The notes: a model not told the origin generated them from the sequence alone. DNA of 64,000 bases from Patescibacteria group bacterium (GCA_022711495.1 JAKLEX010000001.1:225389-289388); one strand, 5' to 3'. Counted from the first letter of the stretch, positions 1 to 15,263 are shown. Numbers and translations: made by a program.

Positions 1-263
1 GGATTCCCCTGGACGGCGACCTTTTATCTTAATCCGGAAGCAATTGGCACGGATGATCGTTATTTCCGGGTTCTCTATACTCCGCAAGGACAGTAGAGAT
101 GATGATCGTCTTGATGGCCAACGGACTATTGCGGTCCGGCTTGAGCAAAACCCCATTCGCGTGAACAGCGGTGGGGTTTTTATTTTTTCGGTGTGGCAAC
201 AAAATATTCTCCAGTCGTATCAAGGGGTATTGACAATTATTGAAAGTAAGAGTATAATCGTCA

Positions 264-1673
264 GTGATAGTAAGTAACAATAATATGACAAGAGCAAATC
301 CATTAACAAGCCAAAAAACAAGCAAATACGCAGTTATTTTGTTGATCACCATCTTTGCTATGGGAATTTTGATTTCATCTCCGGCCAGAGCCGAAGCAGC
401 GCTGGACGTTTCTTGTTCGCCGGATATTTCTGCCATTTATGACGGCGAATCAGTTTCTTGGTCCGCTGATGTCAGTGGCGGTGACGGCAATTATACTTAT
501 GAATGGTCGGATGATCAGGGCAATTCATCTTCTGATGAAAATTTTGATCAATCTTACAATGCCGGTTCTGGCAACGAGACAATTTCCGTGATAGCGGAAG
601 TAACTGTTACCGACGGACTAGGTGACACCGGATCTTCTCAGTGTGAAGTTATCGTGATCGGCGAATTAACTTTCAACGGCTGTGAAGCCAATGAAGTTTC
701 TGGCGAAACCGGTGTACCGATAAAATGGACAGCCGATGTCGTCGGTGGTTTGACGCCGTACACTCTTTCTTGGTCGGGTGATGACGATTTATCTGGTGAC
801 TCAACTAGAATTTCAAAAAATTATTCAACTCCTGGTACAAAATCCGCTTTTGTAGACGCCGTTTCATCAGATGACGGCCAGATTGTCGTTGGGCCGTTTG
901 ATTGCGGTTCAGTTGAAATTTATCCAACCCCGGGCGAATTTATTGTCTCATGCCGAGCGGAACCGGATAATCCAAAGCAGTTTGCTTCTGTGACATGGGT
1001 GGCCGACGTTTCTGGCGGTCTTGAACCTTATACTTTTTCTTGGGACGGAGACAATAATTTATCAGGAGACGGGGAGACCGTCGTTACTTCTTACACTGAA
1101 GTCGGTGTAAAAAATGCCACGTTAAATGTGATTTCAAGCGATGGTCAGATGGCCACAGGAGTCAGTTGTAGCCTTGAAGTTGAAGAAAGAACCGGCGGTG
1201 GCGGTCACAGCGGAAATGACGATGACGGCGGTGATTCATCTTCTACTTCTACGACGACAGATTCTACTTCCACAACGACAGATTCAACTTCTACGTCAAC
1301 CGAGCCGACCTCCACGACGACCGAATCTACTTCCACGACTACTTCAGAAGAGCCTGGCGAAGAAGGTTCTGGTGGCGGAGAGATAATTTTAAGTTTTGCT
1401 ACACCGGGGACTGAAGCCTCAAGCAATCTAACTGCTACTGGCACGCAAGATGGCACTGACTCTCAAGGAACAACTACAGACGCTACGTCAACAGCCACGA
1501 CAAGCCCAGAGCAACTCGCGTCCGGATTAACCGCGGCGGCTTTTGCGGCATTTGTCGGAGACAACTTACTGTGGTTTGGATTTCCAATTCTTCTTTTAAT
1601 CATTCTGGCCATCATCTTTATTGCTATAGTTTTAAAACGAAGATCAAAGGTGTATAATACAACCGAACACTAA
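264..1673 (+). CDS. Secreted/cell-surface protein with three PKD/Ig-like repeats, Thr/Ser-rich stalk and C-terminal TM anchor
   Basis: N-terminal signal peptide (ILLITIFAMGILISSPARA). Three ~100-aa internal repeats with motif W-[ST]-A-D-V-x-G-G-x-x-P-Y-T-[YLF]-x-W-[SD]-x-D. (TSTTTDS)n linker. Hydrophobic C-terminal helix followed by KRRSK. Confidence 0.6.
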   Translation: MIVSNNNMTRANPLTSQKTSKYAVILLITIFAMGILISSPARAEAALDVSCSPDISAIYDGESVSWSADVSGGDGNYTYEWSDDQGNSSSDENFDQSYNAGSGNETISVIAEVTVTDGLGDTGSSQCEVIVIGELTFNGCEANEVSGETGVPIKWTADVVGGLTPYTLSWSGDDDLSGDSTRISKNYSTPGTKSAFVDAVSSDDGQIVVGPFDCGSVEIYPTPGEFIVSCRAEPDNPKQFASVTWVADVSGGLEPYTFSWDGDNNLSGDGETVVTSYTEVGVKNATLNVISSDGQMATGVSCSLEVEERTGGGGHSGNDDDGGDSSSTSTTTDSTSTTTDSTSTSTEPTSTTTESTSTTTSEEPGEEGSGGGEIILSFATPGTEASSNLTATGTQDGTDSQGTTTDATSTATTSPEQLASGLTAAAFAAFVGDNLLWFGFPILLLIILAIIFIAIVLKRRSKVYNTTEH

Positions 1674-1715
1674 AGGCCGGGGGAACCTTTACTAGCTTTA
1701 ACTTAATATTGTCTT

Positions 1716-2816
1716 ATGAAAACAAAAACAATATTTTTTTTGGCGTTACTGATTATTGTCGCTCTGAGTTTCATCATCCTGGGCGGTCGATCTCTTATGG
1801 AAAACGGGGGAATTGATTTTAGTCTAAATGACGGATCAAAATATGCTCCACAAATTAATCCGGATGATTTTACAACCAATGTCACTAACCAACATTTCAC
1901 GTTAGTCCCGGGCAAGAAAACGGTTTATGAATCTCAAACGGAAGACGGACTTGAGAGGATTGAAACATACGTGACAAGTGAAACAAAAGTTGTCGCGGGT
2001 GTTGATACGGTCGTCGTTTGGGACAGGGTTTGGCTTGAAGGAGATTTGATTGAAGATACAAAAGACTGGTACGCTCAAGATAAAGACGGAAACGTCTGGT
2101 ACTTCGGTGAAGAATCTTATGAGTTGATTGATGGAAAGATTATCAGCAATCACGGTTCTTGGGAGTCTGGAAATGACGGTGCGCAACCGGGAATAATTAT
2201 GTTTGCTGATCCGAGAGTTGGTGTTACGTACAGGGAAGAATATTATGCCGGAGAAGCGGAAGATATGGCCGAAGTCTTGTCCTTAAATGAGAAAGTGGAT
2301 GTGCCGTATGGATCTTTTGAGAATTGTTTACAAACAAAAAATTTTAGTCCTTTGGAACCAGACGTGATGGAGTACAAATATTATTGTATCGGACCAAATA
2401 GCGTTGTGTTGGAGATTGACGGCGAAGATCAAGAAAGAGTAGAACTCATTTCGGTTGAATTCAATTCCACACCTTCTCCCAACGACTTGAGCGAGAATGG
2501 GTCTGATTCAAACACCGCCGATGAGCCGACTGGCACACCCCTTTCTGGCGGAGAAGACGCGATGAGCGATGGAAATCAGACTGATTCCTCGTCAGGATCT
2601 CCAGCCGAAGACAGAGAAATGCTACAAACGCAAATTACTGAAGATCAGGCAAAGACCATTGCCCTTAATTCTGTTTCGGGGACAGTTACAGATGTCGCTA
2701 TTGAGAAAAAATTCGGCAAACCGACTTATGTGGTAGAAATCCGCACGGCTGATGGGGAAGAAATTGACGTGATTATAGATATTGATACCGGAGAAGTCTT
2801 GGCTGTGGAAGACTAA
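1716..2816 (+). CDS. Secreted protein with C-terminal PepSY domain
   Basis: Signal peptide. C-terminal approx 60 aa (AKTIALNSVSGTVTDVAIEKKFGKPTYVVEIRTADGEEIDVIIDIDTGEVLAVED) fits the PepSY fold pattern. Confidence 0.55.
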   Translation: MKTKTIFFLALLIIVALSFIILGGRSLMENGGIDFSLNDGSKYAPQINPDDFTTNVTNQHFTLVPGKKTVYESQTEDGLERIETYVTSETKVVAGVDTVVVWDRVWLEGDLIEDTKDWYAQDKDGNVWYFGEESYELIDGKIISNHGSWESGNDGAQPGIIMFADPRVGVTYREEYYAGEAEDMAEVLSLNEKVDVPYGSFENCLQTKNFSPLEPDVMEYKYYCIGPNSVVLEIDGEDQERVELISVEFNSTPSPNDLSENGSDSNTADEPTGTPLSGGEDAMSDGNQTDSSSGSPAEDREMLQTQITEDQAKTIALNSVSGTVTDVAIEKKFGKPTYVVEIRTADGEEIDVIIDIDTGEVLAVED

Positions 2817-2845
2817 GGGTTTTTGGTGAGAACCTCTTCCGGCTC

Positions 2846-2874
2846 TTGACAGACGGTGTAGTTTTTGTTAAAAT
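2846..2874 (+). promoter_or_regulatory. Sigma70-like promoter TTGACA-N17-TAAAAT upstream of 2946 gene
   Basis: TTGACA 2846-2851, 17-nt spacer, TAAAAT 2869-2874. AAAGGAG Shine-Dalgarno site sits before the ATG at 2946. Confidence 0.4.
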
Positions 2875-2945
2875 TCTCAGCAGAAAAGGTTAAGACTTCT
2901 TGAGCAACAAGCTCTGTCTGACCGAAAAAACAAAAGGAGAAAGAC

Positions 2946-3914
2946 ATGAAGAGTTCTTTGATAGCGATTGTGGTCGCCAGTGTTTTGTTGGCGATTGTGG
3001 TGACGCCCAAGGCATCGGCGGGCGGACTGATCCCGATGTTTGATTACGGCTACATGCAGGCCCAGGTGAGTGGTTACACTCACCTGTACTACCTGCCGGA
3101 GTCGGCGATGTGCCCGCGTCCGGACAAGGTCGGGATTCCCGATGACGAGTCCGATTTTCAGTGGGGCTTGTGCCGGCTGAAGATTGATGCGAGCATGCCG
3201 GACTCACCGTTCGGCGGGTTCTACGAGTTTGAACTCGTGGACATCGACGATTCTGGAGCCAACTGGCTTCGGCGTGCCGAGCTCACATACAAAGTCAATG
3301 ATGCCTGGCTGGTTCGTGCCGGCCGATTGTTTATGGCATCGAGCTATGCGACTCCTTCGGCGGCGAGTGTGGAAACGGTTCGCTCTCCGCGGATGTCGTC
3401 CCCGCTCTACGCCTACGGCGTTCAAGCGGCCGGGGATCTCGGTTCGGGCGTGAGCATTCTGTCCGACATTACCGGGAATTCCGGCGTGTCGTTCGACAGT
3501 GACGACAACTGGAATCGCGTTGAATCTTCGACGCGAATCCAGAAACAGATCTCCGAAGATTTGTTCGTCGCCGGCACAGCTCACTTGTCCGAAGACTTCG
3601 GTAGAGCCGTTCTGGACGGTGGGTGGCGTCTGGGGTCCGTATGCCTTCGCGTGGCGGGCTATACCAAGTACGAATCTGTCGACGGGCGGGCCGAAAACAA
3701 GCGGGGTTTCTACCAATACGTTGGGTATGAAATTCTGCCCGGTCTCGAAGTTCACGGCCAGTACGATCACCAAGTTGGCGACGACGACATCTGGACGATC
3801 GGTTCCCGAATCTGGGCGCCGAAAGTCCCGGTCGAGCTGACCGTTGACTACGAATTCGTTCCGGATGCGGACGGCGACAATCGCGTCGTTGCCCGCCTCG
3901 AGGGGCGGTTCTAA
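2946..3914 (+). CDS. Secreted hypothetical protein in GC-rich island (possible beta-rich/outer-membrane-like protein, C-terminal Phe)
   Basis: Longest ORF in a ~58% GC segment. Signal peptide (LLAIVVTPKASA). Good Shine-Dalgarno site. Ends ...ARLEGRF. Confidence 0.5.
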   Translation: MKSSLIAIVVASVLLAIVVTPKASAGGLIPMFDYGYMQAQVSGYTHLYYLPESAMCPRPDKVGIPDDESDFQWGLCRLKIDASMPDSPFGGFYEFELVDIDDSGANWLRRAELTYKVNDAWLVRAGRLFMASSYATPSAASVETVRSPRMSSPLYAYGVQAAGDLGSGVSILSDITGNSGVSFDSDDNWNRVESSTRIQKQISEDLFVAGTAHLSEDFGRAVLDGGWRLGSVCLRVAGYTKYESVDGRAENKRGFYQYVGYEILPGLEVHGQYDHQVGDDDIWTIGSRIWAPKVPVELTVDYEFVPDADGDNRVVARLEGRF

Positions 3915-3941
3915 GTTCTAAGTCGGTTAACCACAAACAGG

Positions 3942-3980
3942 GCGCATCAGCAATGATGCGCTCTTTCTTTTTGTTTTTTG
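3942..3980 (+). terminator. Rho-independent terminator
   Basis: GCGCATCA-gcaa-TGATGCGC hairpin followed by a T-run. Confidence 0.55.
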
Positions 3981-3998
3981 ATAAATTCAAATCCGTTC

Positions 3999-4027
3999 TT
4001 GACTCAAACCCTATAACATGTTATACT
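3999..4027 (+). promoter_or_regulatory. Sigma70-like promoter TTGACT-N17-TATACT upstream of 4122 gene
   Basis: TTGACT 3999-4004, 17-nt spacer, TATACT 4022-4027. A ~95-nt leader with two hairpins and a GGAAAGGAAGG Shine-Dalgarno site precedes GTG 4122. Confidence 0.4.
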
Positions 4028-4121
4028 CCACACTAGAGTAGTTGAGCCAACATCGGCTCAAAATTCAGGAGGTCGGTTAATTCCCGCCCACAGAGGCGGA
4101 TAACGGAAAGGAAGGTTCGTT

Positions 4122-5138
4122 GTGAAGAGAACAAAGGTAGTGAAATTGGGTGTCCACAGCTCGCCCCATCTGGACGAATTGGTGGCGGTCCATCTGCTTC
4201 GGAACTACGGGGAAGAGAAAATCCCCGGAGTTTCGACGGCAGTCCTGACTACATACGGCAAGACTGAGCTTCAGCAATTGTCGCCGGAAACAGCGGCAAT
4301 GCAGGGCATTCTTCTTGTCGGCATAGGCGGTGGAATGTTCGACGAGCACGGCCGACGCGGTTCGCGCCAGGATTGCGCGGCGACACTGGTCGCCAAGCAC
4401 CTGGGTCTGGACGAGGATCTGTTATGGCCGCGCTTTCTCCGGAACGTGTTCCTGGCGGACGCGGAAAACCGTGGTCCGTACACGTTCGTAGCGGAGCTCG
4501 TCAAAAAGCTCAACCGCTACTGGGTGGGCACCCTCGATCCGGAATTGCTGTATAAGCAAGTCGAACCGATCATTATCGCGCTTCGAGTTGAAGTTGAGCT
4601 TCTGGCTGAAGCCGAGCATCGTTTCCGCAAGGCCTACAAGCGGGAGATCAACGGCTACCAACTGGTGGCGGTGGACCAACTGGACAACGTCGAATTCCAG
4701 CACGTCGCAAACCGTGCCGGGGTCAACGTCGTCGTTCAGCGGGGGCGCGACGGGCTGACTCAGATTCTGATGAGGCACGCCTCGTCAGATGAACTGGACG
4801 TGCCCGGTCTGGCCGTTCGTATCCGCAAGGCGGAAATGGCCAAGTCCGGAATTCGCCCGAAGCGGTTTCTGGACGATCGCGCGCTGTCGGCGATGGGAAC
4901 TCTTTCCGATATACCCCAGTGGTATGTTGAGAAGGGGAACCTGTTAAACGGATCGGAATCTTTCCGGGACGTTCCGCCTTCGGGCATTTCGTTTGCCGAC
5001 CTGGTACATGTCGTTGAGAAGCACCTGCGCGAATTGGACGATGAGTCTGATCCGCGCGATTCGGCGGAAAAGTCGGGTAAATCGATTTGCGAAAGAGAAC
5101 CGGCCCCGACCGAAGAACTACCGGTGGATGGCGACTGA
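4122..5138 (+). CDS. Hypothetical protein, possible metal-dependent hydrolase (H-x3-H-x-D-E motif reminiscent of MYG1/UPF0160)
   Basis: GTG start with Shine-Dalgarno site. N-terminal VHSSPHLDELVAVHLL motif. GC-rich. Longest ORF among overlapping alternatives. Confidence 0.45.
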   Translation: MKRTKVVKLGVHSSPHLDELVAVHLLRNYGEEKIPGVSTAVLTTYGKTELQQLSPETAAMQGILLVGIGGGMFDEHGRRGSRQDCAATLVAKHLGLDEDLLWPRFLRNVFLADAENRGPYTFVAELVKKLNRYWVGTLDPELLYKQVEPIIIALRVEVELLAEAEHRFRKAYKREINGYQLVAVDQLDNVEFQHVANRAGVNVVVQRGRDGLTQILMRHASSDELDVPGLAVRIRKAEMAKSGIRPKRFLDDRALSAMGTLSDIPQWYVEKGNLLNGSESFRDVPPSGISFADLVHVVEKHLRELDDESDPRDSAEKSGKSICEREPAPTEELPVDGD

Positions 5139-5188
5139 ATTATATTCGCACCCTGACTGGCCAAAAATCAGTCAGTGAACTCACAAGG

Positions 5189-5225
5189 GGTCGAGAAAGC
5201 AAAACTTTCTCGGCCTCTTTTTTAT
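5189..5225 (+). terminator. Rho-independent terminator (plus strand)
   Basis: CGAGAAAG-caaaa-CTTTCTCG hairpin followed by a T-run. Confidence 0.5.
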
Positions 5226-5250
5226 TTACCGACAAAATATTTTCTAAAAA

Positions 5251-5295
5251 ATAAAAATCGGCGAGAAAGTGATTAAACCTTCTCGCCGATTCCGG
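5251..5295 (-). terminator. Rho-independent terminator (minus strand) for lipoprotein gene
   Basis: Reverse strand ATCGGCGAGAA...TTCTCGCCGAT hairpin followed by a U-run. Convergent with the previous terminator. Confidence 0.5.
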
Positions 5296-5311
5296 TTGCG
5301 ACCGGCAACGA

Positions 5312-5674
5312 TCAGCGTACCTCTACCCAATCGTCGTATATGTTGACGTGGTAGTTGTACAGATCGTCGTCGAATTCGGCGTGGAACTGTCTCGGTCCGC
5401 TCGGTCCCCAGATTACAAAACTCATCCTGAACTTCTCGCCCGGGTAGAGAGCTTTGGAATAGTAGCCGTCTTCGCCGGGCTCCAGGGATTCAACGAACGC
5501 GTTGCCCAGATAGACGTCCACTGCGTACTGAGTGTACGAGTACACGTCAACGCTTACGTATGTCTCGTAATCACCCTCGTAACGGTCCTCGCACCCGACC
5601 GTTCCACAGATCACAATCGCCATCACGCCGATTCCGACCAACACCGGCAAAAACTTCTGCAAAAGAGCCTTCAT
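5312..5674 (-). CDS. Putative lipoprotein (GC-rich island)
   Basis: Signal peptide with lipobox-like VICGTVGC. GC-rich codon usage. Terminator downstream. Confidence 0.5.
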   Translation of the reverse strand: MKALLQKFLPVLVGIGVMAIVICGTVGCEDRYEGDYETYVSVDVYSYTQYAVDVYLGNAFVESLEPGEDGYYSKALYPGEKFRMSFVIWGPSGPRQFHAEFDDDLYNYHVNIYDDWVEVR

Positions 5675-5794
5675 TGCGCACTCCCTTCTTGTTTTTTGCG
5701 CTACCTCTGTCTAGCACTATTATATCTTAATTATAGTAAAAGTCAACCACATTATATCCCCATACATTATTAGGACTTATGTTATAATTCAGAC

Positions 5795-5965
5795 ATGGAT
5801 ACAAACCCAAAAGACAATATTAATAAGATTTTAAACACCATTCCGATTGTTATCGGAGTGGTCGTGGCTGTCGTAGCTCTTCTTGGCATCGGAAGTATTC
5901 AAGTAATCTTGGCGATGCTGGGAATCGGCTTGTTTAGCACCGCGCTTGGAGAGTTGGTCAGCTAG
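5795..5965 (+). CDS. Small (56 aa) membrane protein, hypothetical
   Basis: ATG at 5795. Single long hydrophobic segment (IPIVIGVVVAVVALLGIGSIQVILAMLGIGLF). Not in the ORF track because it is under 60 aa. Confidence 0.3.
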   Translation: MDTNPKDNINKILNTIPIVIGVVVAVVALLGIGSIQVILAMLGIGLFSTALGELVS

Positions 5966-6051
5966 TCTTATTTACTACTTGAATAATTTCCAAGGACTCT
6001 TTATTTTGAGAGATTTTTTATGTAGCAGAAAGTATTTTTGGTAATTTCTGT

Positions 6052-6057
6052 TATAAT
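6052..6057 (+). promoter_or_regulatory. Extended -10 (TGtTATAAT) 10 nt upstream of lysS ATG (leaderless-type)
   Basis: TGTTATAAT at 6049-6057, ATG at 6067, no Shine-Dalgarno site. Confidence 0.4.
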
Positions 6058-6066
6058 CTATTTATC

Positions 6067-7587
6067 ATGAAAAAAGCAGAAAATTCAGCGCCTAACCGTC
6101 CCGCATCTGGTTCTCCAAAGGCAAGAGACGAGCGTCAAGATCGTCTAAAAAGACTTGAACTAATAAAATCCCTCGGTCTTGTTCCTTACGCTGATCGATT
6201 TGAGAAAACGCATTCAATCGCTCAAACCCGCGAAGCTAAAATGGGCGCCAAAGTCGCCACGGCCGGCCGAATTGTGTTGTTCCGCGACATGGGCAAAGTT
6301 TCTTTCGCTCATTTGCTTGATTTTTCCGGAAAAGTTCAAATCGTTCTAAAAATTGACGAGCTGGGCCAAGAAAATTATAAAAATTTCATTAAGATAATCA
6401 GCCTCGGCGACTTTATTGGTGTTCGGGGCGAGATGTTTAAAACCCAAAAAGGCGAAATTTCCATATTAGTCAAAGAATATGCTTTTTTGAGTAAAGCCTT
6501 GCGGCCTCTGCCGGAGAAATGGCACGGTTTGAAAGATCTTGAGACAAAATACCGCAAACGATATTTGGATTTGATCGCTAATTCGGATACGATGGCGCGA
6601 TTCAATTTCCGCAGTAATTTTATTTGGGAATTAAGAAAGTTTTATCAAGAAAACGGTTTTCTTGAGATTGATACGCCGGTTCTGTCTGGTTCGGCTTCTG
6701 GCGCTTTGGCTAAGCCATTTCAGACTCATTACAACGCTTTGGATCTGGACGTTTACTTACGTATTGCTCCGGAAATTCATTTGAAAGAAGCCGTCGCCGG
6801 GGGCTTTGAAAAGATTTTTGAAGTTGCTCGGGTTTTCCGCAACGAAGGCATGGATGCCAGTCACTTGCAGGAATTTTCAATGGTTGAGCATTACGCGGCT
6901 TATTGGAATTTTGAGGACAACATGAATTTCACCGAAAAGATGCTGACGACGTTGATTAAAAAATTAAAAGGCAGTTTGAAAATCAAAGTTCTAAATCGCG
7001 ACGACCAGCTGATTGAAGTGGATTTTTCTCTGCCTTGGCGTCGAGTCTCTTTTAGAGATTTACTGATGAAAGATTGCGGAATTGATGTTGATAAATGCTC
7101 TGACGCTAAAAGTTTGCGCGAAGCTATAAAGAAAAAGAAAATCGCCATTGAAGATATGGATAAGTTAGGACACGGAAACTTGATGGACGCTTTATATAAG
7201 AAGATTTCTCGTCCGAAGATTATCAATCCGACTTTCTTGATAAATCATCCGACCGATTTATCGCCTTTAGCGCGAAAAAATGACAAAAATCCGCTGGTTA
7301 CTGACCGTTTTCAATTGATTGTCAACGGCTGGGAAATTGTTAACGCTTACAGCGAATTAATTGATCCGATTGATCAGAGAGAAAGATTTGAAAAACAAAC
7401 CGTCGCCAAGAAAGCCGGCGATGAAGAGGCCATGCAGAAGGATGATGAATTTGTTGAAGCAATGGAATATGGCATGCCGCCAGTGTCGGGCTGGGGGATG
7501 GGCATAGAAAGAATCGTGGCTCTTCTGACGGAACAGCCAAATCTGCGCGACGTGGTGATGTTTCCTTTGTTGAAACCGAAAGAGTGA
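6067..7587 (+). CDS. lysS: Lysyl-tRNA synthetase, class II
   Basis: Class II motifs. C-terminal GMPPVSGWGMGIERIVALL...FPLLKP. 506 aa. Confidence 0.95.
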   Translation: MKKAENSAPNRPASGSPKARDERQDRLKRLELIKSLGLVPYADRFEKTHSIAQTREAKMGAKVATAGRIVLFRDMGKVSFAHLLDFSGKVQIVLKIDELGQENYKNFIKIISLGDFIGVRGEMFKTQKGEISILVKEYAFLSKALRPLPEKWHGLKDLETKYRKRYLDLIANSDTMARFNFRSNFIWELRKFYQENGFLEIDTPVLSGSASGALAKPFQTHYNALDLDVYLRIAPEIHLKEAVAGGFEKIFEVARVFRNEGMDASHLQEFSMVEHYAAYWNFEDNMNFTEKMLTTLIKKLKGSLKIKVLNRDDQLIEVDFSLPWRRVSFRDLLMKDCGIDVDKCSDAKSLREAIKKKKIAIEDMDKLGHGNLMDALYKKISRPKIINPTFLINHPTDLSPLARKNDKNPLVTDRFQLIVNGWEIVNAYSELIDPIDQRERFEKQTVAKKAGDEEAMQKDDEFVEAMEYGMPPVSGWGMGIERIVALLTEQPNLRDVVMFPLLKPKE

Positions 7588-7677
7588 ATCTGAAGTCGCT
7601 GGACTCTTAACGATACGGGGCCCGTGCTTTTGTGTTAAAATAATGGCAGTTGGAATTTATAAAGTTAATTTATTTCT

Positions 7678-9036
7678 ATGAACCGTTTTTATAAATTTGG
7701 CTTGATGTTCGTGTTGGCCGCGGCTCTGTTTTTTTCTGCCGCCAGATCAGTCCAAGCCTTGACAATGTGTAGTTTCACTCGAGATTTAACTGTTGGATCA
7801 AGTGGTGAAGATGTTCGCTGTCTGCAGCAATATCTGAATGCGGTTGGTTACACGATTGCTAACACGGGCGCTGGTTCGCTAGGCCAAGAGACAACTTATT
7901 TTGGAAATCTAACGGCACAAGCCGTGGCCAAATGGCAAGCAGGCAACGACATATCGCCGACGGCTGGATATTTTGGCACAATCTCTCGTGCCAGATACGC
8001 GGAGATTTTCCAAAGAGCGAATGATCCGGCCGGAGCCGACGCGCGGGCGGCTATAGCCGAGGCTTCTTCTTATATCGCTGAGGCACGTCGAGCCTTTAAT
8101 CAAGCGGATGGAGATGGGGCCGACCGAACAGAAGATATAATCAAGGCGACGTTTAGTGACTTATCTATTGCTTCCGATTTTTATCAAGATGGTGAATATA
8201 ACAAAGCCGAGGACTCTGCCTTAAGGGCTGTTAGAGGAGCCAAGTATGCTCTCGGGGCTTTAGATGACTCCAAAGATTATGAAGATAATAGGAGCGGGGC
8301 CAAAGAGGTTATTCAGAACACTGAAGACGCAATTAAAGACGCCGAAGATGCTATTGAAGATGCTGAAGAGGCCACAGATGAGTCTGAAGCAGACGATTAT
8401 GACATAGACGGGGCAAAAGATATTTTGGAAGAAGCCCAAGATCTATTGGAAGAATCTCAAGATCTATTAAACGAAGCCGAAGAAGCTTTTGACGATAGGG
8501 ATTATGATGAGGCGATTGACTCGGCCGAAGATGCACTAGCCTTAGCGACAGACGCTCAAGAAATTGCAGAAGATGCCGCAGATATTGCTGACGGGGATAT
8601 TGAATACGAAGACTATGATTCGGATTTTATGGTCCATGATAGTGATGATGACGACGAAAATGCCGTTGATCAAAACGACGAAGATGACGAAGATGATGAT
8701 GAGGACGACGATTCCGCCACGACAGACGATCAAATAACCGGACAGGCAACCTCAACAGTGGATACGTATAATAAAATAGTTCCAACACTGGTTCAAACTT
8801 ATGGCGGTAGTGGCGTGAGCCAAAGTAGCACCGCTAGTGAAAGCGGCACACAAAGTGGCATTGACGCGGGAAGTTCTAGTAATGACTCTGATGAGACAGA
8901 AGAAACTCCAGAGGAAGAGGCCGCTCAAATAAATGACTCCATAATTTATTCTGGTAATTCTGCCGGCGATTGGTATAACAACGGCATCCTTAATCCTGGG
9001 GGCTGTTCTGCGGGGGAATGTTCGTGGGGGACATAA
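7678..9036 (+). CDS. Secreted peptidoglycan-binding-domain protein with polyacidic repeat region (family member 1)
   Basis: Signal peptide. CSFTRDLTVGSSGEDVRCLQQYLNAVGY...YFG...AVAKWQ matches the PG_binding_1 pattern. Long D/E/A-rich repeats (FDDRDYDEAIDSAEDA etc.). Confidence 0.7.
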   Translation: MNRFYKFGLMFVLAAALFFSAARSVQALTMCSFTRDLTVGSSGEDVRCLQQYLNAVGYTIANTGAGSLGQETTYFGNLTAQAVAKWQAGNDISPTAGYFGTISRARYAEIFQRANDPAGADARAAIAEASSYIAEARRAFNQADGDGADRTEDIIKATFSDLSIASDFYQDGEYNKAEDSALRAVRGAKYALGALDDSKDYEDNRSGAKEVIQNTEDAIKDAEDAIEDAEEATDESEADDYDIDGAKDILEEAQDLLEESQDLLNEAEEAFDDRDYDEAIDSAEDALALATDAQEIAEDAADIADGDIEYEDYDSDFMVHDSDDDDENAVDQNDEDDEDDDEDDDSATTDDQITGQATSTVDTYNKIVPTLVQTYGGSGVSQSSTASESGTQSGIDAGSSSNDSDETEETPEEEAAQINDSIIYSGNSAGDWYNNGILNPGGCSAGECSWGT

Positions 9037-9109
9037 TTTTCTCTATTCTTATCTGCATGTTAAAATAATCATGCTTATCAGAAGCATTATTGGTTAATTT
9101 ATTTCAATT

Positions 9110-10315
9110 ATGAATAATCAAAGAAAAATAGTTTGGTTACTGACATTATTAGTTCTGCTTGTTGTTGGTGCGAATATTGCCGAAGCCGCCACGACTTGTA
9201 CTTTTACAAGAGACCTGGCTTTAGGTGATAACGGCGAAGACGTTCGTTGCTTGCAACAGTATTTAAATAGTGCCGGCTACACAATCGCAGCATCGGGCGT
9301 CGGTTCGCCTGGAAACGAAACAAGCTTGTTTAGAACTTTGACGGAGCAAGCGGTGATTAGGTGGCAAACAGCCAACGGTATTTCACCGGCTTCCGGATAC
9401 TTTGGTCCAAAGTCACAAGCAAAATATAATGCACTAATTTCTGGATCAAGTTCTGGCTCAAGTTCCAGCTCATCCGGCAGCTCGTCATCCAGTTCTTCCA
9501 GTAGCTCGTCCGGTTCATCCAGCTCCAGCTCTTCGTCAAGTAGCTCATCAGCTAACTCGGAGAGAAGCGAGGCCGAAGATACAATCTTAGAGGCTGTAGA
9601 CGCCATTTATGATGCCGAAGGGCAAATAGAAGATAGCGATGAAGATGAAGACGATATTGAGGATGCCGAAGAGATGTTAAAAGATGCTCGTGAAAATCTT
9701 TATAATGCCATTGAGGCGTATTTTGACGAAGATTACGATGATGCCATAGATTCAGCCGACGACGCCATTTCAGACGCCGAAGATGCTTATGAACAAGCCG
9801 GCGGGGAATCAGAAGAGGACGAAGCCGAGCAAGCCATTGACGACGCCGAGGACGCCTTAGACGCCGCCGAAGCCGAAATTGAGGAAGCGGACGACGATGG
9901 TGAGGAAGTCGGCGAGGCCGAAGATCTTTTTGACGAAGCTCAAGACTTGTTAGACGAAGCTGAAGAGGCTTTTGATGATGAGGATTATGACGAGGCTATT
10001 GATTTAGCCGAAGAGGCCGAAGATACGGCGGACGAAGCCGTCGACGCTATCGGTGAAGAAGGCGACGATGAAGAATCAGACGCCGAAGAAGCTATTGAAG
10101 ACGCCGAAGATGCCATTGATGCCGCCGAAGAGGCCATTGATGAATCAGACGCGGATGCTGATGACATAGAGGAGGCCGAAGATCTTGTTGACGAGGCTAA
10201 CGATTTGCTAGACGAAGCCGAAGAAGCCTTTGACGACGAAGATTACGACGATGCCATTGACGCTGCTGAAGAAGCTCAAGAAAAAGCCGAAGAAGCCGAA
10301 GATTTGGTTGATTAG
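9110..10315 (+). CDS. Secreted peptidoglycan-binding-domain protein with poly-Ser tract and polyacidic repeats (family member 2)
   Basis: Same N-domain (CTFTRDLALGDNGEDVRCLQQYLNSAGY). Poly-Ser run of about 35 aa. Repeated acidic modules EEAEDLxDEAxDLLDEAEEAFDDEDYDEAID. Confidence 0.7.
   Translation: MNNQRKIVWLLTLLVLLVVGANIAEAATTCTFTRDLALGDNGEDVRCLQQYLNSAGYTIAASGVGSPGNETSLFRTLTEQAVIRWQTANGISPASGYFGPKSQAKYNALISGSSSGSSSSSSGSSSSSSSSSSSGSSSSSSSSSSSSANSERSEAEDTILEAVDAIYDAEGQIEDSDEDEDDIEDAEEMLKDARENLYNAIEAYFDEDYDDAIDSADDAISDAEDAYEQAGGESEEDEAEQAIDDAEDALDAAEAEIEEADDDGEEVGEAEDLFDEAQDLLDEAEEAFDDEDYDEAIDLAEEAEDTADEAVDAIGEEGDDEESDAEEAIEDAEDAIDAAEEAIDESDADADDIEEAEDLVDEANDLLDEAEEAFDDEDYDDAIDAAEEAQEKAEEAEDLVD
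9443..9552 (+). repeat. Poly-serine coding simple-sequence tract (AGY/TCN codon repeats)
   Basis: About 110 nt encoding SSGSSSSSSGSSSSSSSSSSSGSSSSSSSSSSSS. Confidence 0.8.
10061..10315 (+). repeat. 255-bp direct repeat copy 1 (3' end of paralog CDS), ~99% identical to 13128-13382
   Basis: Base-by-base comparison shows only 2 mismatches over 255 nt, including the stop codon. Confidence 0.9.
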
Positions 10316-10448: not shown

Positions 10449-13382
10449 ATGAAATATCTTAGAAAATTAATCCAGGCGTCTGTATTATTAGTATTTTTTG
10501 TCTCTAATATTCGTGTTGAGGCAGTATCGATTTGTACTTTTACCAGAGATCTGACAGTCGGATCGGTCGGCGAAGACGTGCGCTGCTTGCAACAATATTT
10601 AAATAGCACCGGTTACACCATTACCGAATCAAATGAGGGCTCACTAGGACAAGAGACCACATATTTTGGAACTTTAACCGCGCAAGCTTTAGCAAGATGG
10701 CAGTCAAACAACGGAGTATCGCCGGCCACCGGATATTTCGGTCCAGTTTCAAGAGCGAAATATAGCTCCTTCACTTCCGGAGTCTCTAATGGCGCCGGAG
10801 GAACTGTGAGCGGACAAAGAGAAGCCGCCTCTTCTATAAATGAGGCCGTTTATACCATAAGCGAAGTTTATGATAAGGTCAGAAATTCAAAAAATAGCAA
10901 AGCTGTAGGACTCTGGGAAGATGCCGACGAATTGTTGGATGATGCGGAGGCAGCTTATAACAAAAAGCAATATGATCTAGCTTTAGATTTTGCGGAGGCG
11001 GCAATCGAAAAAGCCGATGAGGCAGAATCGGCTCTTAGTAGTAAGACTGCTTCAACTAGCGAAGCTAAATCTGAAGCCAGAGACGCTATCGCAGACGCTG
11101 AAAAAGCCATTGACGACGCCAAAGATGAGATTGACGAAGCTGATGACGATGGCGATGACGTTGATGAAGCTGAAAGTATCTTAGACGACGCCAGGGAAGC
11201 TTTAAATGACGCCGAGGAAGCCTACGACGATAAAGATTATGATGAAGCGATAGAATTGGCTGAAGAGGCTCAAGATGCGGCAGACGAGGCCGTTGATGCT
11301 ATCGGCGAAGAACCTGAAGATGACGATGATGAAGATGATGAAGATGATGAACAGATCTCGGTTAAACTTCTGGCTAACGGAAAGTCTGGAACGGTTAAAA
11401 CCAATTCAGACAGTGTCGCACTAACATGGACGTCTAATGCTAAATATTGCGAAGCTTCGTCGTCATATTCCGCCGCCGGCAGCTCATCTAGTTTGGCAAA
11501 TAAGACAATAAGCATCTTGCCAATCGGTGATTCCAATACTGCTGGAGTGGGCAATCCAACCAACTGCACGAAAAATTGCCTTGGTTATAGGAAAAGCTTA
11601 AAAGATCTTCTAACCGCGGCCAATATAAAGACCGACTTTGTTGGTTCAAAATCTGACGGTAATTTCACCGACAATCAACACGAGGGCTGGTCTGGCGAAG
11701 GTATTTCTAAAATTCAAAGCCGAATATCTGGCGGCATTCTTGGAACTCTCAAACCAGATATCGCCCTGCTTCTTATTGGAAGCAATGACATGTGGATTTC
11801 TCTTTCTGATCGTAGCCCGGTCTCTGATAACAAGGCTAACTACTGGGTATCGCAACTTGGAAAATTGCTAGATGCTATGTATGGCAAAAAAAGTGACATG
11901 CATGTTATTGTCGCCAAACCGGCGACACCTAGGAGCGCCTCTGGACCTCTGGCCATTTATCGCGATGGTATTGATACTTTGGTTAAACAGAAAAAAACCG
12001 ATGGACAAAAAATCTCCTCAGTTGATTTGATGGGAGCGAAAAATGATGGCACCCATTATACCTCTACCGGTTTTGAGACTGTGGCCAATTTGTGGGCCGC
12101 TGAAATCAAGAGCATTGTTTCCGGTAGTTCTGCGATATATACCGCGCCAAGTTGGTCGGGCCAGAAGAGTGCAAAGGGCAGTAAATCTTTTTCTTTAGCT
12201 CCGGGCTCGGAAACGACTTTCAGTTTAAGGTGCGGGGATTCTTCCTCGTCTTTGACGGCTAGGAGTAATGTTACTGTTAAAGTCAGCTCAAGCGCCAGTT
12301 CATCGTCCGGCGGCGACTCCGGTGATGACGCCGTTGACCTTTATGAAGGCATGATTGAACAGTTGGTTGAGACCATGGGTGAAGGATTTGATGAAGTTGG
12401 TATACCGCAACCTTTTGCTTGTCCTTTGAAGACTGAATCTGATGATGACCGACTAGTTAATTTCTCTACAGTTAAGGGATTGCTTGGTAAATCTTCCGGA
12501 AGTACTCCTGCTGGATTCTCGTCCAATGGTCAAGCGGACTACCAAGTAAGTATTCCTGCCGGCACGTATAAAGTGTCCATGACAACCTATGACAATCACT
12601 CGGAACACGGCGGTCAGGGCCAGCGCAATGAGAAAGTCTATCTTGAGTTATATGATGGTGCCGATGGAGACATGATTGCGAAGACCGACTCTACGGATGA
12701 TATTTCAGAAAGTTCTAATAGTGTTACCACGATCATCGCTGACGCTTTGGAAGTAGACAGTCAAGTCAAAATGTTAAGAACTATTCACGCGGCGTATCCG
12801 AATGGTTCATCGGCCGAAAGCGTATTTCCAATCTGTACGTTGTTTGAAAGCACAGACGAAGACCCGGAGGATGACGAAGAAAAGGAGGCCGAAGACGCTG
12901 TTGATAGAGCCATAGAACTGATAGACGAAGCTAAAGACGCGATTGACGACTCCGACGCCTCGGACAGGAAAATTGAATTGGCTGAAGATATTATTGATGA
13001 CGCGGAAGATCTTGTTGACGATGCAACGGAGGCCATTGATGATGAGGATTATGACGAAGCGATAGAATTGGCCGAAGAGGCTCAAGATTTTGCTAAGGAG
13101 GCGGCCGATATCGTCGGTGAGAAAATCGGCGACGATGAAGAATCAGACGCCGAAGAAGCTATTGAAGACGCCGAAGATGCCATTGATGCCGCCGAAGAGG
13201 CCATTGATGAATCAGACGCGGATGCTGATGACATAGAGGAGGCCGAAGATCTTGTTGACGAGGCTAACGATTTGCTAGACGAAGCCGAAGAAGCCTTTGA
13301 CGACGAAGATTACGACGATGCCATTGACGCTGCTGAAGAAGCTCAAGAAAAAGCCGAAGAAGCGGAAGAGTTGGTTGATTAG
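10449..13382 (+). CDS. Large secreted protein: PG-binding domain + acidic repeats + SGNH/GDSL hydrolase domain + second acidic repeat array (family member 3)
   Basis: Signal peptide and CTFTRDLTVGSVGEDVRCLQQYLNSTGY. SGNH blocks GDSNTAG (block I), EGWSG (II), GSNDMW (III), DGTHYT (V). Acidic modules on both sides. Confidence 0.7.
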   Translation: MKYLRKLIQASVLLVFFVSNIRVEAVSICTFTRDLTVGSVGEDVRCLQQYLNSTGYTITESNEGSLGQETTYFGTLTAQALARWQSNNGVSPATGYFGPVSRAKYSSFTSGVSNGAGGTVSGQREAASSINEAVYTISEVYDKVRNSKNSKAVGLWEDADELLDDAEAAYNKKQYDLALDFAEAAIEKADEAESALSSKTASTSEAKSEARDAIADAEKAIDDAKDEIDEADDDGDDVDEAESILDDAREALNDAEEAYDDKDYDEAIELAEEAQDAADEAVDAIGEEPEDDDDEDDEDDEQISVKLLANGKSGTVKTNSDSVALTWTSNAKYCEASSSYSAAGSSSSLANKTISILPIGDSNTAGVGNPTNCTKNCLGYRKSLKDLLTAANIKTDFVGSKSDGNFTDNQHEGWSGEGISKIQSRISGGILGTLKPDIALLLIGSNDMWISLSDRSPVSDNKANYWVSQLGKLLDAMYGKKSDMHVIVAKPATPRSASGPLAIYRDGIDTLVKQKKTDGQKISSVDLMGAKNDGTHYTSTGFETVANLWAAEIKSIVSGSSAIYTAPSWSGQKSAKGSKSFSLAPGSETTFSLRCGDSSSSLTARSNVTVKVSSSASSSSGGDSGDDAVDLYEGMIEQLVETMGEGFDEVGIPQPFACPLKTESDDDRLVNFSTVKGLLGKSSGSTPAGFSSNGQADYQVSIPAGTYKVSMTTYDNHSEHGGQGQRNEKVYLELYDGADGDMIAKTDSTDDISESSNSVTTIIADALEVDSQVKMLRTIHAAYPNGSSAESVFPICTLFESTDEDPEDDEEKEAEDAVDRAIELIDEAKDAIDDSDASDRKIELAEDIIDDAEDLVDDATEAIDDEDYDEAIELAEEAQDFAKEAADIVGEKIGDDEESDAEEAIEDAEDAIDAAEEAIDESDADADDIEEAEDLVDEANDLLDEAEEAFDDEDYDDAIDAAEEAQEKAEEAEELVD
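13128..13382 (+). repeat. 255-bp direct repeat copy 2
   Basis: See 10061-10315. Confidence 0.9.
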
Positions 13383-13404
13383 ATTTCTTTAGTCTGAAAC
13401 TGAC

Positions 13405-13436
13405 AAAAACCGCCCTGAAGGCGGTTTTTGTTTTTA
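13405..13436. terminator. Bidirectional rho-independent terminator between convergent genes
   Basis: AAAACCGCC-ctgaa-GGCGGTTTT with A/T runs on both sides. Confidence 0.6.
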
Positions 13437-13443
13437 CCCAGAC

Positions 13444-14358
13444 TTACCGTCTAACAAAACTGCGGACAATCTTAAATAAAATCCAGATAAGAAACGCAAT
13501 AACCAAATACAACAAGATTTTATATTCCAAAATTCCGTAAAGGGTCTTGAAGAGATAGAGTTGCCCAGTCTTCAAAAATATTTGTCTTGATAACATTCGT
13601 CCTTCGGCTGGAGCGGACAATTCCGCTCGTCCCTCAACAATCGTCTGTTTAATAGCTTCGTTGCGAGCCTTTAGGTCCGCAAGCTCTTCTTCCAGAGCGA
13701 GAATTTTGCCTTCAATTTTGTCGCTCAAAGAATCGGCGCCGGTGTTGATACTTTGGAGGGCACTGTCGGCGGTTTCTTTGATGGTACTGACGACTTGTCC
13801 TCCGATATCGTTCTCATCATCTTCTTTCGTATCTCGGTTATCCTCATCGTCCTCTTCATCGCCGATACCGTCATCGTCGGAGTCATAATCAACAAAAATT
13901 TCTTCCGATTCTATGATGTTGTTTTTTATTTCTACGTCGCTTCGCCAACCGCTAGAGGTATTTTTTTTGACATTAGTGAGTTTGGCGTAAATCTGATGAG
14001 TGCCGTATTCTGGAGCAAAATCAGCCCAGCCTTCAATAAGTCGGCCGTTGAGAGCGGAGAATTCTTTGGTCTCAATTCTCTTGCCGTTGTCATAGAATTC
14101 TATCTGACCGGTGATGTCATCGCCGGATTGATTTTGAAAAGCCACGTAAATACGAGCATTTTCATCGGCGAAAAGAGGAAATTTTGAATACCAAATTCCG
14201 CTGACAAAACCGGCGTTAGTCTTCACCGCGGATTCGGCCGCTTCAACTTTTTCTGCGGCCAAGACTTTTCCCACTATTAGAACCTTTTCCGCGTTGATTA
14301 ATAGAAGGGATAGACTTAATATTGCAAAAACACTGAAAAATTTAAAGTTTGTCATCAT
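13444..14358 (-). CDS. Secreted acidic coiled-coil protein with C-terminal TM anchor, hypothetical
   Basis: N-terminal signal peptide. D/E-rich segment. Coiled-coil segment (LALEEELADLKARNEAIKQ). C-terminal hydrophobic helix. Confidence 0.5.
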   Translation of the reverse strand: MMTNFKFFSVFAILSLSLLLINAEKVLIVGKVLAAEKVEAAESAVKTNAGFVSGIWYSKFPLFADENARIYVAFQNQSGDDITGQIEFYDNGKRIETKEFSALNGRLIEGWADFAPEYGTHQIYAKLTNVKKNTSSGWRSDVEIKNNIIESEEIFVDYDSDDDGIGDEEDDEDNRDTKEDDENDIGGQVVSTIKETADSALQSINTGADSLSDKIEGKILALEEELADLKARNEAIKQTIVEGRAELSAPAEGRMLSRQIFLKTGQLYLFKTLYGILEYKILLYLVIAFLIWILFKIVRSFVRR

Positions 14359-14821
14359 ATTTTTTTATCAACCATAACGTGATGCCGATTCCTAAAACTG
14401 CACCAGCTAAGATTTGTGTTAGCGTGTGAACTCTTAAGATTAGCCGGCTGGCGACTATGGCTAAAATGGCAAGTGTCAGAATCAAAGTTGCGGTGCTCTT
14501 GAATAAGCGGCTTTTGTTTGAACGCCAGATGTAGTTAGCTAAAAAAGTCAGAAGGAAAAAACCGATCGCGGTGTGTCCGCTCGGAAAAGCATAATCGTTC
14601 AGTCCAATTAGGGCGTCGGCCGGGCGCGATATTTTAGTGACGTCTTTTATTAGCAGAGTCAAAATTGAAGTGAGCAGGGTGGACAGGGCGAAAACTTTTA
14701 AGGCGGGGAATCTTTTCTTGGCCATCAGCCAAAGCGCGATGGCAAAAATAAACCCAAAGATGATTTCCCAACTGGAGATGAAATAGACGTAATATGAGGC
14801 CGTTACTAGAAGGGAATTCAT
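14342..14821 (-). CDS. PAP2-family phosphatase (undecaprenyl-diphosphatase-like)
   Basis: Motifs KxxxxxxRP (KDVTKISRP), PSGH, SRxxxxxHxxxQ. About 5 TM helices. Confidence 0.7.
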   Translation of the reverse strand: MNSLLVTASYYVYFISSWEIIFGFIFAIALWLMAKKRFPALKVFALSTLLTSILTLLIKDVTKISRPADALIGLNDYAFPSGHTAIGFFLLTFLANYIWRSNKSRLFKSTATLILTLAILAIVASRLILRVHTLTQILAGAVLGIGITLWLIKKYDDKL

Positions 14822-14927
14822 GGGGATATTATAGCAACTTTTTACTGTATATTGGCATTATCTGTTGTCATTAATATTTTTGAATTCTCTAGGCTTATAT
14901 AATATATTCTGGTAAAATTAAACCGTT

Positions 14928-15263
14928 ATGGGAAATGAGGAAGGAAAGGCCGATAGAGACTATTTTGTTTTAGCAATTCTGTTTATGATAGCTGTGGCTT
15001 TCTGGGTTAGTTTCTTTCGGTATTTTATCAATTTAGACTACAACATATTGCTGACTATTGAATGCGACCCAGAAGTTTCAAGCTGTGTCACTGACGGAGA
15101 ATATTTTTATGATCGGTTTTTGGTCAAGGCAAAAACCATAGAAGATTATTGCGGTGAAAAACAAGACGAAGAATGTATTTTAAAGTTATATGAACAAAAT
15201 CGGGCGGAAAAAATACCCTGTGAAGAAGACCTAGAAGATTGGGAGGAATGTACAAGTCCATAA
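14928..15263 (+). CDS. Small membrane-anchored Cys-rich hypothetical protein
   Basis: One N-terminal TM helix. Six Cys in the C-terminal half. Confidence 0.35.
   Translation: MGNEEGKADRDYFVLAILFMIAVAFWVSFFRYFINLDYNILLTIECDPEVSSCVTDGEYFYDRFLVKAKTIEDYCGEKQDEECILKLYEQNRAEKIPCEEDLEDWEECTSP

Follow-up and report, generated by a model that had tools for sequence, protein, structure and literature searches.

The stretch of DNA considered here, called the window throughout, comprises 64,000 nucleotides from a Patescibacteria group bacterium (GCA_022711495.1 JAKLEX010000001.1:225389-289388). Near its beginning, upstream of the gene encoding lysyl-tRNA synthetase (LysRS; lysS), lies a variable locus of a Candidatus Paceibacterota chromosome (candidate phyla radiation, or CPR) that contains three autonomous monocistronic modules, each apparently made up of a promoter, a leader, a Shine-Dalgarno (SD) sequence, a coding sequence and a terminator of its own. 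The high GC content of the three genes appears to be a property of the gene lineages and not the fingerprint of a donor, taking the form of a constant offset of about +12 points that tracks the GC content of the host. I consider it reasonably probable that they are long-maintained, gene-specific, GC-rich, SD-led modules, in which selection keeps the GC excess and the excess is linked to a distinct mode of expression. In any specific mechanism for the maintenance of GC I place much lower confidence. The three coding sequences are:

2946-3914, plus strand: open reading frame 1 (ORF1), 322 amino acids, 58.3% GC, GC at third codon positions (GC3) 0.700
4122-5138, plus strand: ORF2, 338 amino acids, 57.8% GC, GC3 0.673
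5312-5674, minus strand: ORF3, 120 amino acids, 53.4% GC, GC3 0.711

A first-pass annotation of this DNA described a sharp shift in composition at about 2.85 kb and another, back again, at about 5.7 kb, and this is borne out. GC calculated in sliding windows is not uniform: it climbs from about 0.43 to 0.52-0.59 at about 2.9-5.2 kb and has returned to 0.41 by 5.7 kb. The GC-rich interval, taken as 2846-5700, has 54.6% GC, as compared to 42.6% across the remainder of the window, and at 1-kb resolution 3001-5000 stands at 0.57, while all other kilobases of the 64 kb have 0.51 or less. The excess is restricted to the three coding sequences, the intergenic spacers having 41.6-43.5% GC.

Codon usage, whose comparison the same annotation proposed, deviates as well. 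Among the ORFs of the window (n=63; median GC3 0.438, median absolute deviation 0.039), the three genes, with GC3 of 0.67-0.71, are the strongest outliers, at about 4-4.7 robust standard deviations, and their codon usage is shifted at nearly every amino acid. C- and G-ending codons are both enriched (AAG 0.74 vs 0.30, TAC 0.82 vs 0.30, CTG 0.47 vs 0.16). GC is raised at the third and the first codon positions, with GC at the second raised moderately in ORF1 (GC1/GC2/GC3 of 0.61/0.44/0.70) and hardly in ORF2. If the same proteins were encoded with the codon usage of the window, the expected GC of ORF1, ORF2 and ORF3 would be 0.489, 0.481 and 0.440, respectively, as compared to the observed 0.583, 0.578 and 0.534. 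Synonymous codon choice accounts for these 9-10 GC points, which are left when the protein is fixed and host codon usage applied, and amino-acid composition was therefore rejected as the sole cause. It does explain most of what is left of the excess relative to the window background, with R, V, G and P up and K, I and N down. Conserved antisense ORFs were also considered as a cause of GC richness; long ones are expected by chance in GC-rich sequence.

The excess is not peculiar to the window. In the ORF2 family, the GC of the gene exceeds that of its flanks at 19 of 19 loci (sign test, p = 4e-6), with a mean excess of +12.1 points. The genes range from 43-66% GC and the flanks from 33-53%, the two being related by a regression in which gene GC = 0.96 x flank GC + 0.136 (r = 0.83). 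In seven genomes, GC3 of the ORF2 homologue is above that of the adjacent murC by 0.16-0.30, for example 0.559 vs 0.265 in L008 (homologue loci are designated by L numbers). Close homologues of ORF1 have 51-54% GC in hosts of 34-40%, and the homologues of both ORF1 and ORF3 are GC-rich in L018 too. Among the 19 ORF2-family loci and 4 close ORF1-family loci, there is no uniformly GC-rich carrier of any of the families.

The synonymous sites of these genes indicate that the excess may be old. At conserved four-fold codons, third-base identity between syntenic copies of the ORF2 family is 0.25-0.43 for most pairs, with 0.23-0.30 expected, which is similar to what is found in MurC. Between the window and L018, the value is 0.33 for ORF1 (0.29 expected) and 0.27 for LysRS (0.24 expected). 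Since four-fold sites lie near the expectation from composition, the sites would have turned over, and the raised GC3 would then represent a stationary state and not a residual donor signature. In the GC meta-profile, upstream sequence has 0.31-0.35, a level of at least 0.5 is attained from +30 onward, and past the stop GC is down to 0.28 by +60: the rise sets in with the start codon and is over no more than about 60 nt after the stop, and the first 30 nt show a dip in GC. The codon bias typical of highly expressed genes was considered as an explanation and rejected, the ribosomal-protein genes of L011 having ordinary GC3. Distant members of the ORF2 family (32-41% identity over the N-terminal domain), 8-16 GC points above their flanks, were also seen in L021, L023 and L024, metagenome-assembled genomes (MAGs) labelled Gammaproteobacteria, with the binning taken as labelled.

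The histories of the three genes can be read to some extent from their neighbors. ORF2 has 36 detectable homologues, and in eight distinct Paceibacterota genomes (L008, L011, L013, L028, L029, L030, L032 and L040) the homologue lies directly upstream of murC. Besides five further loci, these neighborhoods are:

L008, 10954-12321: murC-adjacent DHH-fold gene
L011, 11069-12466: murC-adjacent DHH-fold gene
L013, 6768-8126: murC-adjacent DHH-fold gene

The murC-linked homologues have the same promoter core, long leader, strong SD and terminator as ORF2, and the core CTTGACT...TG(C/T)TATACT is invariant in an alignment of the window, L013, L008 and L029. Within the murC-linked clade, MurC identity is 55-65% for most pairs (81% for L008/L030, the closest) and that of the ORF2 homologues is 47-66%, the two sets of pairwise identities co-varying. 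In a neighbor-joining tree, the ORF2 of the window falls within the clade in 176 bootstraps out of 200, with L013 as its sister in 149 of 200. The murC-linked homologue is often found near murD, a PgeF-like gene (PF02578), an M15 peptidase gene or a NUDIX gene, and its company hints at a role tied to peptidoglycan-precursor or nucleotide metabolism.

Among the available genomes, the one nearest to that of the window is L018 (GCA_964402215.1), whose LysRS is 80-81% identical. Its locus has the same order, with an ORF1 homologue, an ORF3 homologue on the opposite strand, a small membrane protein and LysRS, and ORF2 is absent from it. There are no ORF3-like lipoproteins beside the ORF1 homologues in L015 and L017, and the pairing of ORF1 with ORF3 is limited to the window and L018. 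Because L018 keeps both genes at the same locus and in the same order, ORF1 and ORF3 appear to be old residents, at the locus since the common ancestor with L018. ORF2 appears to have come laterally, because it is 47-60% identical to the genes of the murC-linked clade, although MurC and MurD of the window are only 30-34% and 27-30% identical to theirs, and because L018 does not have it. The unit would have been inserted, promoter included, between the convergent terminators of ORF1 and ORF3, and its source would be a clade of Paceibacterota with low GC (about 40%), where the gene was already a GC-rich outlier and the upstream neighbor of murC.

The signals predicted around the three genes, in order along the window, are as follows:

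2846-2874, plus strand: ORF1 promoter, sigma-70-type, TTGACA-17-TAAAAT with TG extension, 11/12 matches; leader of about 65 nt
2934-2939, plus strand: SD-like AAGGAG, 6 nt before the ATG of ORF1, within the A-rich leader AAAAAACAAAAGGAG
3939-3974, plus strand: ORF1 intrinsic terminator, 11-bp stem followed by a T-run
3999-4027, plus strand: ORF2 promoter, TTGACT-17-TATACT, TG-extended, from the promoter scan
4034-4121, plus strand: leader of ORF2, about 88 nt long; hairpins at 4044-4063 and 4084-4099, AGGAGG at 4067-4072
4110-4115, plus strand: start-proximal SD-like GGAAGG, 6 nt before the start of ORF2
5185-5227, plus strand: ORF2 intrinsic terminator, 15-bp stem followed by a T-run
5254-5293, minus strand: ORF3 intrinsic terminator, hairpin and T-run, convergent with the ORF2 terminator
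5681-5687, minus strand: SD-like AAGGGAG, 6 nt before the ATG of ORF3
5746-5719, minus strand: ORF3 promoter, TTGACT-16-TATAAT, from the promoter scan; leader of about 38 nt

The near-consensus promoter upstream of each gene, the SD sites in the leaders and the convergent hairpin terminators, all claimed in the first-pass annotation, are found here, the last in the form of the ORF2 and ORF3 terminators, which face each other. The number of promoter-like sites, three as compared to 2.4 +/- 1.6 expected, is not above chance, and the case for the promoters is made by their placement exactly upstream of each gene, not by their number. Terminator-like hairpins number 12, with 4.9 +/- 2.3 expected; the scan places those after ORF1 and ORF2 at 3939-3964 and 5185-5219. 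Predicted transcription starts fall at about 2881, about 4034 and, on the minus strand, about 5712. L018 has equivalent promoters: TTGACA-N-TTATAAT upstream of its ORF1 homologue and TTGACT-17-TATAAT for ORF3. The leader of ORF2 has a predicted fold of -28.2 kcal/mol (z = -2.5), and its GGAAGG aligns with the family consensus GGAGGTTCTTTG(A/G)TG; an insertion of about 45 nt between an ancestral SD and the start of ORF2 was considered and dropped, since the aligned GGAAGG is the homologue of the family SD. Rfam gave no match, either for the whole window at gathering thresholds or for the island at E<=1, which argues against a known structured RNA in the GC-rich segment and against a known riboswitch in the ORF2 leader.

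Some similarities among these signals may be noted. The leaders of ORF1 and ORF3 have in common an A-rich element, AAAAAACAA(A/G)A(A)GG(G)AG (2925-2943 and 5675-5698), of which the T-tail of the ORF1 terminator (3957-3980) is nearly the reverse complement. The convergent terminators of ORF2 and ORF3 have related stems (GAGAAAG...CTTTCTC) at 5204-5227, 5247-5270 and 5277-5291, and these could be a remnant of the event that put the ORF2 unit in place.

The genes around the locus start differently. The first-pass annotation had flanking genes beginning just after their -10 boxes, and in many neighboring genes a TATAAT-like box does precede the start codon by 4-14 nt, without an SD, which implies widespread leaderless mRNAs. 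The box is sometimes TG-extended, and operon-internal genes likewise have no SD. An SD-like motif of any kind precedes 7-10 of 59 window genes, the range being set by the pattern used. The first of the genes listed below forms the right boundary of the cluster, and the second anchors the locus:

5795-5965, plus strand: 56-aa membrane protein with a leaderless-type start (TGTTATAAT, 6 nt, ATG), host-like GC, conserved in L018
6067-7587, plus strand: LysRS (lysS), leaderless-type start, GC3 0.44
264, 6067, 14342(-), 17199, 18027, 20114, 23526, 33530, 43038, 52354(-): examples of leaderless-type starts, minus strand where marked
14821(-), 27271, 30001, 39467(-), 53265(-), 61166(-): more examples of leaderless-type starts

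All 14 readable ORF2-family genes (13 distinct loci), those of L008 and L011 included, have a strong SD 5-9 nt before the start, in the variants GGGAGG, GAGGAGG, AAGGAGG and AGGAGG. Yet L008 and L011, in each of which the contig with the ORF2 homologue also carries a 16S gene 2-6 kb away from SD-led genes, have 16S 3' ends that read GGAUUAUUUCAAAU (7940-7975) and GGAUAUUUUCAAAU (4313-4348), respectively (the Rfam consensus being GGAUcACCUCCUUu), and in these genomes, which are relatives of the window and not its own, no CCUCC occurs in the following 300-400 nt either. Loss of the anti-SD in about half of the Parcubacteria is described in passages of Tsurumaki et al. (2022; PMC9297842). The present case is like theirs in that the background genes are SD-less or leaderless and the 16S sequences of L008 and L011 are without CCUCC. 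It goes beyond the passages of that paper concerned with anti-SD loss in that a minority of genes keep a strong SD together with raised GC.

The association of SD with GC extends to other genes. In seven Paceibacterota loci, with the three families left out, 147 other genes were available, and their median dGC3 was +0.092 for those with an SD-like motif (n=16) and -0.002 for the rest (n=131; Mann-Whitney p = 1.4e-5). Because dGC3 is higher in SD-led genes across the seven loci, there is a minority class of SD-led, GC-enriched genes, of which ORF1, ORF2 and ORF3 are extreme members.

Selection on the coding sequence or on the mRNA, through codon choice or mRNA structure or stability, for example, would probably keep the genes GC-rich, and this would be linked to a separate mode of expression (strong -35/-10 elements, long leader, SD start and hairpin terminator) that contrasts with the leaderless or SD-less mode of the core genes. 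Several considerations weigh against this account. L041 and L042, distant members of the ORF1 family, have little or no GC enrichment; the GC trait of ORF1 is then restricted to a subclade, and this subclade could at some point have gone through a GC-rich genome. Four-fold sites fall short of full saturation in some ORF2 pairs (0.42 vs 0.29 expected for the window and L013, 0.52 vs 0.25 for L028 and L030), and part of the pattern could come from more recent exchange within the ORF2 clade. The sharp boundary at the coding sequences is weaker evidence than it seems, given that promoters, terminators and A-rich leaders are AT-rich by function. Finally, the case for vertical residence is built on synteny and on the co-variation of identities among a handful of genomes. 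A stronger version of the account, to my mind rather doubtful, has anti-SD-less Paceibacterota operating two expression regimes, one leaderless or SD-less for the bulk of genes and another, SD-led and driven by -35/-10 promoters, for a small maintained GC-rich set. The SD would in that case be read by a non-canonical partner (rRNA, a protein, or the ribosomes of the host cell), and raised GC would be part of what separates the two regimes. If it were true, the cluster upstream of lysS would open a view onto a new mechanism of initiation or regulation in CPR bacteria and onto a CPR barrel of outer-membrane type.

The first-pass annotation offered two explanations for the island: an assembly or binning chimera and a cassette acquired horizontally from a donor of higher GC. 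The former, in which a fragment of a higher-GC organism has been joined into a low-GC CPR contig, has next to no chance of being correct. It would suit the sharp boundaries in composition, but the order PepSY-ORF1-ORF2-ORF3-small ORF-LysRS is identical in at least seven independent assemblies from different samples (JGI, ENA and Logan). JGI contigs of 552,797 and 325,166 bp are among the assemblies that encode the exact ORF1 and ORF2 proteins in the same context, which in full runs SprB-repeat protein, PepSY protein, ORF1, ORF2, ORF3, 56-aa protein, LysRS and peptidoglycan (PG)-binding protein. The longer of the two contigs is Ga0116241_10000024 of JGI 3300010429. Furthermore, the GC steps fall on start and stop codons, with spacers host-like in GC, and the divergent relative L018 has the same locus architecture. 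Recent transfer of a cassette, not yet ameliorated, from a higher-GC, SD-using donor outside the CPR has more to recommend it, and still I consider it unlikely. The codon usage, the GC at the three codon positions and the preference for R over K and V over I all look as they would in a gene at home in a genome of about 58% GC; the expression signals are of the canonical bacterial kind; ORF1 is predicted to be a barrel of a type expected in diderm bacteria; ORF2 has distant relatives in MAGs labelled Gammaproteobacteria; and SD-led genes at these loci are generally richer in GC, as imports would be. However, no GC-rich source turned up in 5.8 billion protein clusters, 185,579 species genomes and the JGI metagenomes, and the homologue loci examined are low in GC, mostly CPR-like in context, the flanks being lower in GC at every one of the ORF2-family loci. 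Nor are the three genes a conserved unit elsewhere, or found together there at all. Given the synteny of ORF2 with murC in eight genomes and near-saturated synonymous sites, amelioration should by now be complete, whereas gene GC follows host GC with a slope of about 1. The taxon names attached to matches of the window proteins, Candidatus Paceibacterota only (for ORF1 and ORF3 from the window's own MAG record, for ORF2 from a 59%-identical homologue), likewise go against a donor from outside, and the cassette reading fails the refutation test that the first-pass annotation itself set for it. The island also has no integrase or transposase, tRNA target or flanking direct repeats; a tRNA scan of the window found none, and neither the island nor the ORF2 unit proved to be bounded by target-site duplications or inverted repeats: a search for them found only short matches at the level of chance, with two exceptions, the kinship between the terminator stems and the likeness of the ORF1 leader to that of ORF3. 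By blastn the island matches nothing in plasmid and phage collections, and PHROGs and PADLOC give no family-level match for the three proteins.

Two other possibilities were weighed. GC-biased gene conversion, or a local mutational bias at recombination hot spots (such as those of exchanged surface or accessory genes), would produce just the kind of directional pressure that the enrichment resembles, with GC3 and GC1 up and C- and G-ending codons both favored, on top of the host's own bias, and ORF2 has demonstrably moved between lineages. Conversion tracts would nonetheless ignore the reading frame, and sequence lying 90-180 nt upstream, or 60 nt and more downstream, is host-like or lower in GC; there is no spill-over into the adjacent murC, and a GC3 offset of +0.16 to +0.30 seems to me large for such an effect. 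I regard this explanation as quite improbable. It is hardly credible, though worth stating, that the modules are meant for the machinery of a conventional diderm host after delivery of DNA, with the barrel assembled by the host's BAM, in analogy to the genes of T-DNA, which carry recipient-type signals. Such cross-cell expression would make sense of a strong SD conserved in genomes whose 16S has no anti-SD (L008 and L011), of an outer-membrane-type barrel that ends in Phe, in a lineage for which the absence of an outer membrane has been proposed (PMC12102498), and of a VirD4/TrwB-type coupling protein encoded a few kb from ORF2 homologues. Against this, no oriT, relaxase or border repeats were seen, patescibacterial type IV secretion systems are reported to be without key components of conjugation (PMC12102498), gene GC follows that of the CPR genome, the conserved place of ORF2 beside murC suggests a function in its own cell, and the dip in GC over the first 30 nt is usual for genes translated in place.

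The products of the three genes have no family-level match in Pfam or NCBIfam, and searches of the PDB by sequence and by profile gave no meaningful matches. ORF1 is the secreted protein ending in Phe of the first-pass annotation, correctly read: its N-terminus, MKSSLIAIVVASVLLAIVVTPKASA/GG, is a Sec signal peptide with cleavage near ASA/GG, and its C-terminus is R-F, part of a conserved ...R-x-E-x-R-F, with RF at the end of all nine family members (ORF1 and eight close homologues). AlphaFold models it as an all-beta meander with about 16 strands, at a mean pLDDT (predicted local distance difference test) of 54.7, reaching 75-86 in the C-terminal half and of low confidence in the N-terminal half. 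ORF1 is accordingly, on the strength of the model, a predicted Sec-exported, porin-like beta-barrel of outer-membrane type. A profile search finds 181 clusters of the family at 50% identity. Set beside the outer-membrane porins of Gram-negative bacteria (PF07396 Porin_O_P and PF13609 Porin_4; the CymA, OmpG, PgaA and PelB structures), the family differs in falling below Pfam thresholds: ORF1 of the window has no Pfam match and no member reaches a porin threshold, the weak matches being to Porin_O_P in 3 of 9 relatives (best E 1.9e-4) and to Porin_4 in one (0.0056). It differs also in its host lineage, as Patescibacteria have been proposed to have no outer membrane (PMC12102498; PMC8871954). 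A family of this size in a supposedly monoderm lineage bears on how epibionts build their envelope or make contact with their hosts, and in the literature searched I found no description of a sizeable CPR family of outer-membrane-type barrels.

The model of ORF2 is confident (pLDDT 91) and shows two domains, a DHH catalytic and a DHHA1-like fold, in a cytoplasmic protein. H12, H16, D18, E19, D74, H76 and D113 are invariant across 29 sequences of the family, and an acidic tail of about 35 amino acids is lineage-specific. ORF2 is thus predicted to be a metal-dependent phosphoesterase of the DHH/DHHA1 fold. It shares with NrnA, GdpP/Pde2, PggH, PAP phosphatase, family II pyrophosphatase and RecJ the same two-domain fold and has invariant His/Asp/Glu clusters near the N-terminus (H-x3-H-x-D-E; GGGxFD-x-H), but no Pfam model, those for DHH, DHHA1 and UPF0160 included, matches any member of its family, NCBIfam and PDB chains likewise give no match in sequence, and those phosphoesterase families are not known to be encoded beside murC. 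The best structural neighbor is an uncharacterised protein of H. pylori (6mtz). The N-terminal motif presumably resembles that of MYG1, a likeness taken as a lead only. Of the possible MYG1-like metal hydrolase called by the first-pass annotation, the motif H-x3-H-x-D-E had been read correctly; membership in the family did not follow, since none of 29 ORF2-family members matches UPF0160 (PF03690) at E <= 1, nor the window protein at E <= 0.1. The MYG1-like label therefore describes a resemblance in structure and motif, family membership not being demonstrated. ORF3, also called as a lipoprotein earlier, does have a signal peptide and a lipobox with Cys28; the GTVG/C of the window is less typical but aligns with the canonical LFVAG/C of the L018 homologue. 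There is one other homologue, with 61% identity, and ORF3 is predicted to be a small lipoprotein.

Other features of the region may be mentioned. Between its small membrane protein and lysS, L018 has an extra stand-alone module (11780-12260), an arginine-rich ORF of about 120 amino acids with a TTGACA-N17-TATAGT promoter, AAAGGAG and a terminator, and with a GC3 of 0.525 as compared to a genome median of 0.24; the locus upstream of lysS seems to collect stand-alone modules. The flanking secreted proteins, at 264-1673 and 7678-9036, have long low-complexity tracts, in one of them Thr/Ser-rich repeats (TSTTTDSTSTTT...) and in the other a very acidic, Asp/Glu-rich region after PG_binding_1.

Two further GC-rich stretches were noticed. 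A second, milder one lies on the minus strand at 58100-62200 of the window (about 50% GC at 59-61 kb) and contains small hypothetical genes. In it, TTGACTTCCCCATCAA is present in two exact copies (60474-60489 and 62137-62152), each ahead of a minus-strand gene, and a near variant, TTGACTTCCCTGTTGA, lies upstream of the minus-strand gene 58162-58467. The product of 58496-58930 (144 amino acids) is 52% identical to a protein that L017 encodes three ORFs downstream of its ORF1 homologue, and the stretch may be another cluster of accessory or mobile genes. L017 itself, a CPR-like contig, has 46-51% GC over positions 1-10000 and about 33% over the rest (10700-20696). The block of 10 kb contains genes for two-component regulators, DAPDH, PurL and PurN, several of its genes are SD-led, and it may represent a larger stretch that was imported or whose GC is maintained.

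Atypical GC content is routinely taken to flag recent transfer or contamination in MAGs, and here, where the genes are bona fide CPR genes, the flag misleads. If the case is general, filters for transfer or contamination that are based on composition would wrongly discard a real class of CPR genes, and some gene-specific force on codon choice, mRNA structure or mode of expression would override the AT pressure on the genome as a whole. A strong SD beside 16S genes with no anti-SD would likewise raise a testable question regarding the start of translation. GC-atypical islands, leaderless genes and the loss of the anti-SD in Parcubacteria are already known. In the literature searched, I found no description of accessory families whose GC stays 11-17 points higher than that of their low-GC CPR hosts over the long term, or of a strong SD on such families in anti-SD-less genomes.

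Two known systems invite comparison. In the Bacteroidota, Flavobacteriia in particular, SD sequences are scarce, a few special genes keep them, and the anti-SD is present but sequestered. The likeness is that most genes start without an SD and a small set keeps a strong one, implying a distinct regulatory class; here, however, the anti-SD is absent in at least two related genomes, and the SD-led class consists of uncharacterised, GC-enriched accessory genes. The other is the genomic island of atypical composition. According to the amelioration model of Lawrence and Ochman, compositionally atypical genes acquired by horizontal transfer lose the signature of their donor with time. The locus resembles such islands in its sharp deviation in GC and codon usage and in having its own expression signals, and ORF2 appears to be lateral and is absent from the nearest relative. 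Unlike classical islands, it has no mobility genes, tRNA target or direct repeats, and the probable donor clade of ORF2 is itself low in GC. Unlike islands in the course of amelioration, its syntenic orthologues remain 11-17 GC points above their hosts despite near-saturated synonymous sites, and this persistent excess in low-GC CPR relatives is a pattern that lies beyond standard gene-transfer theory.

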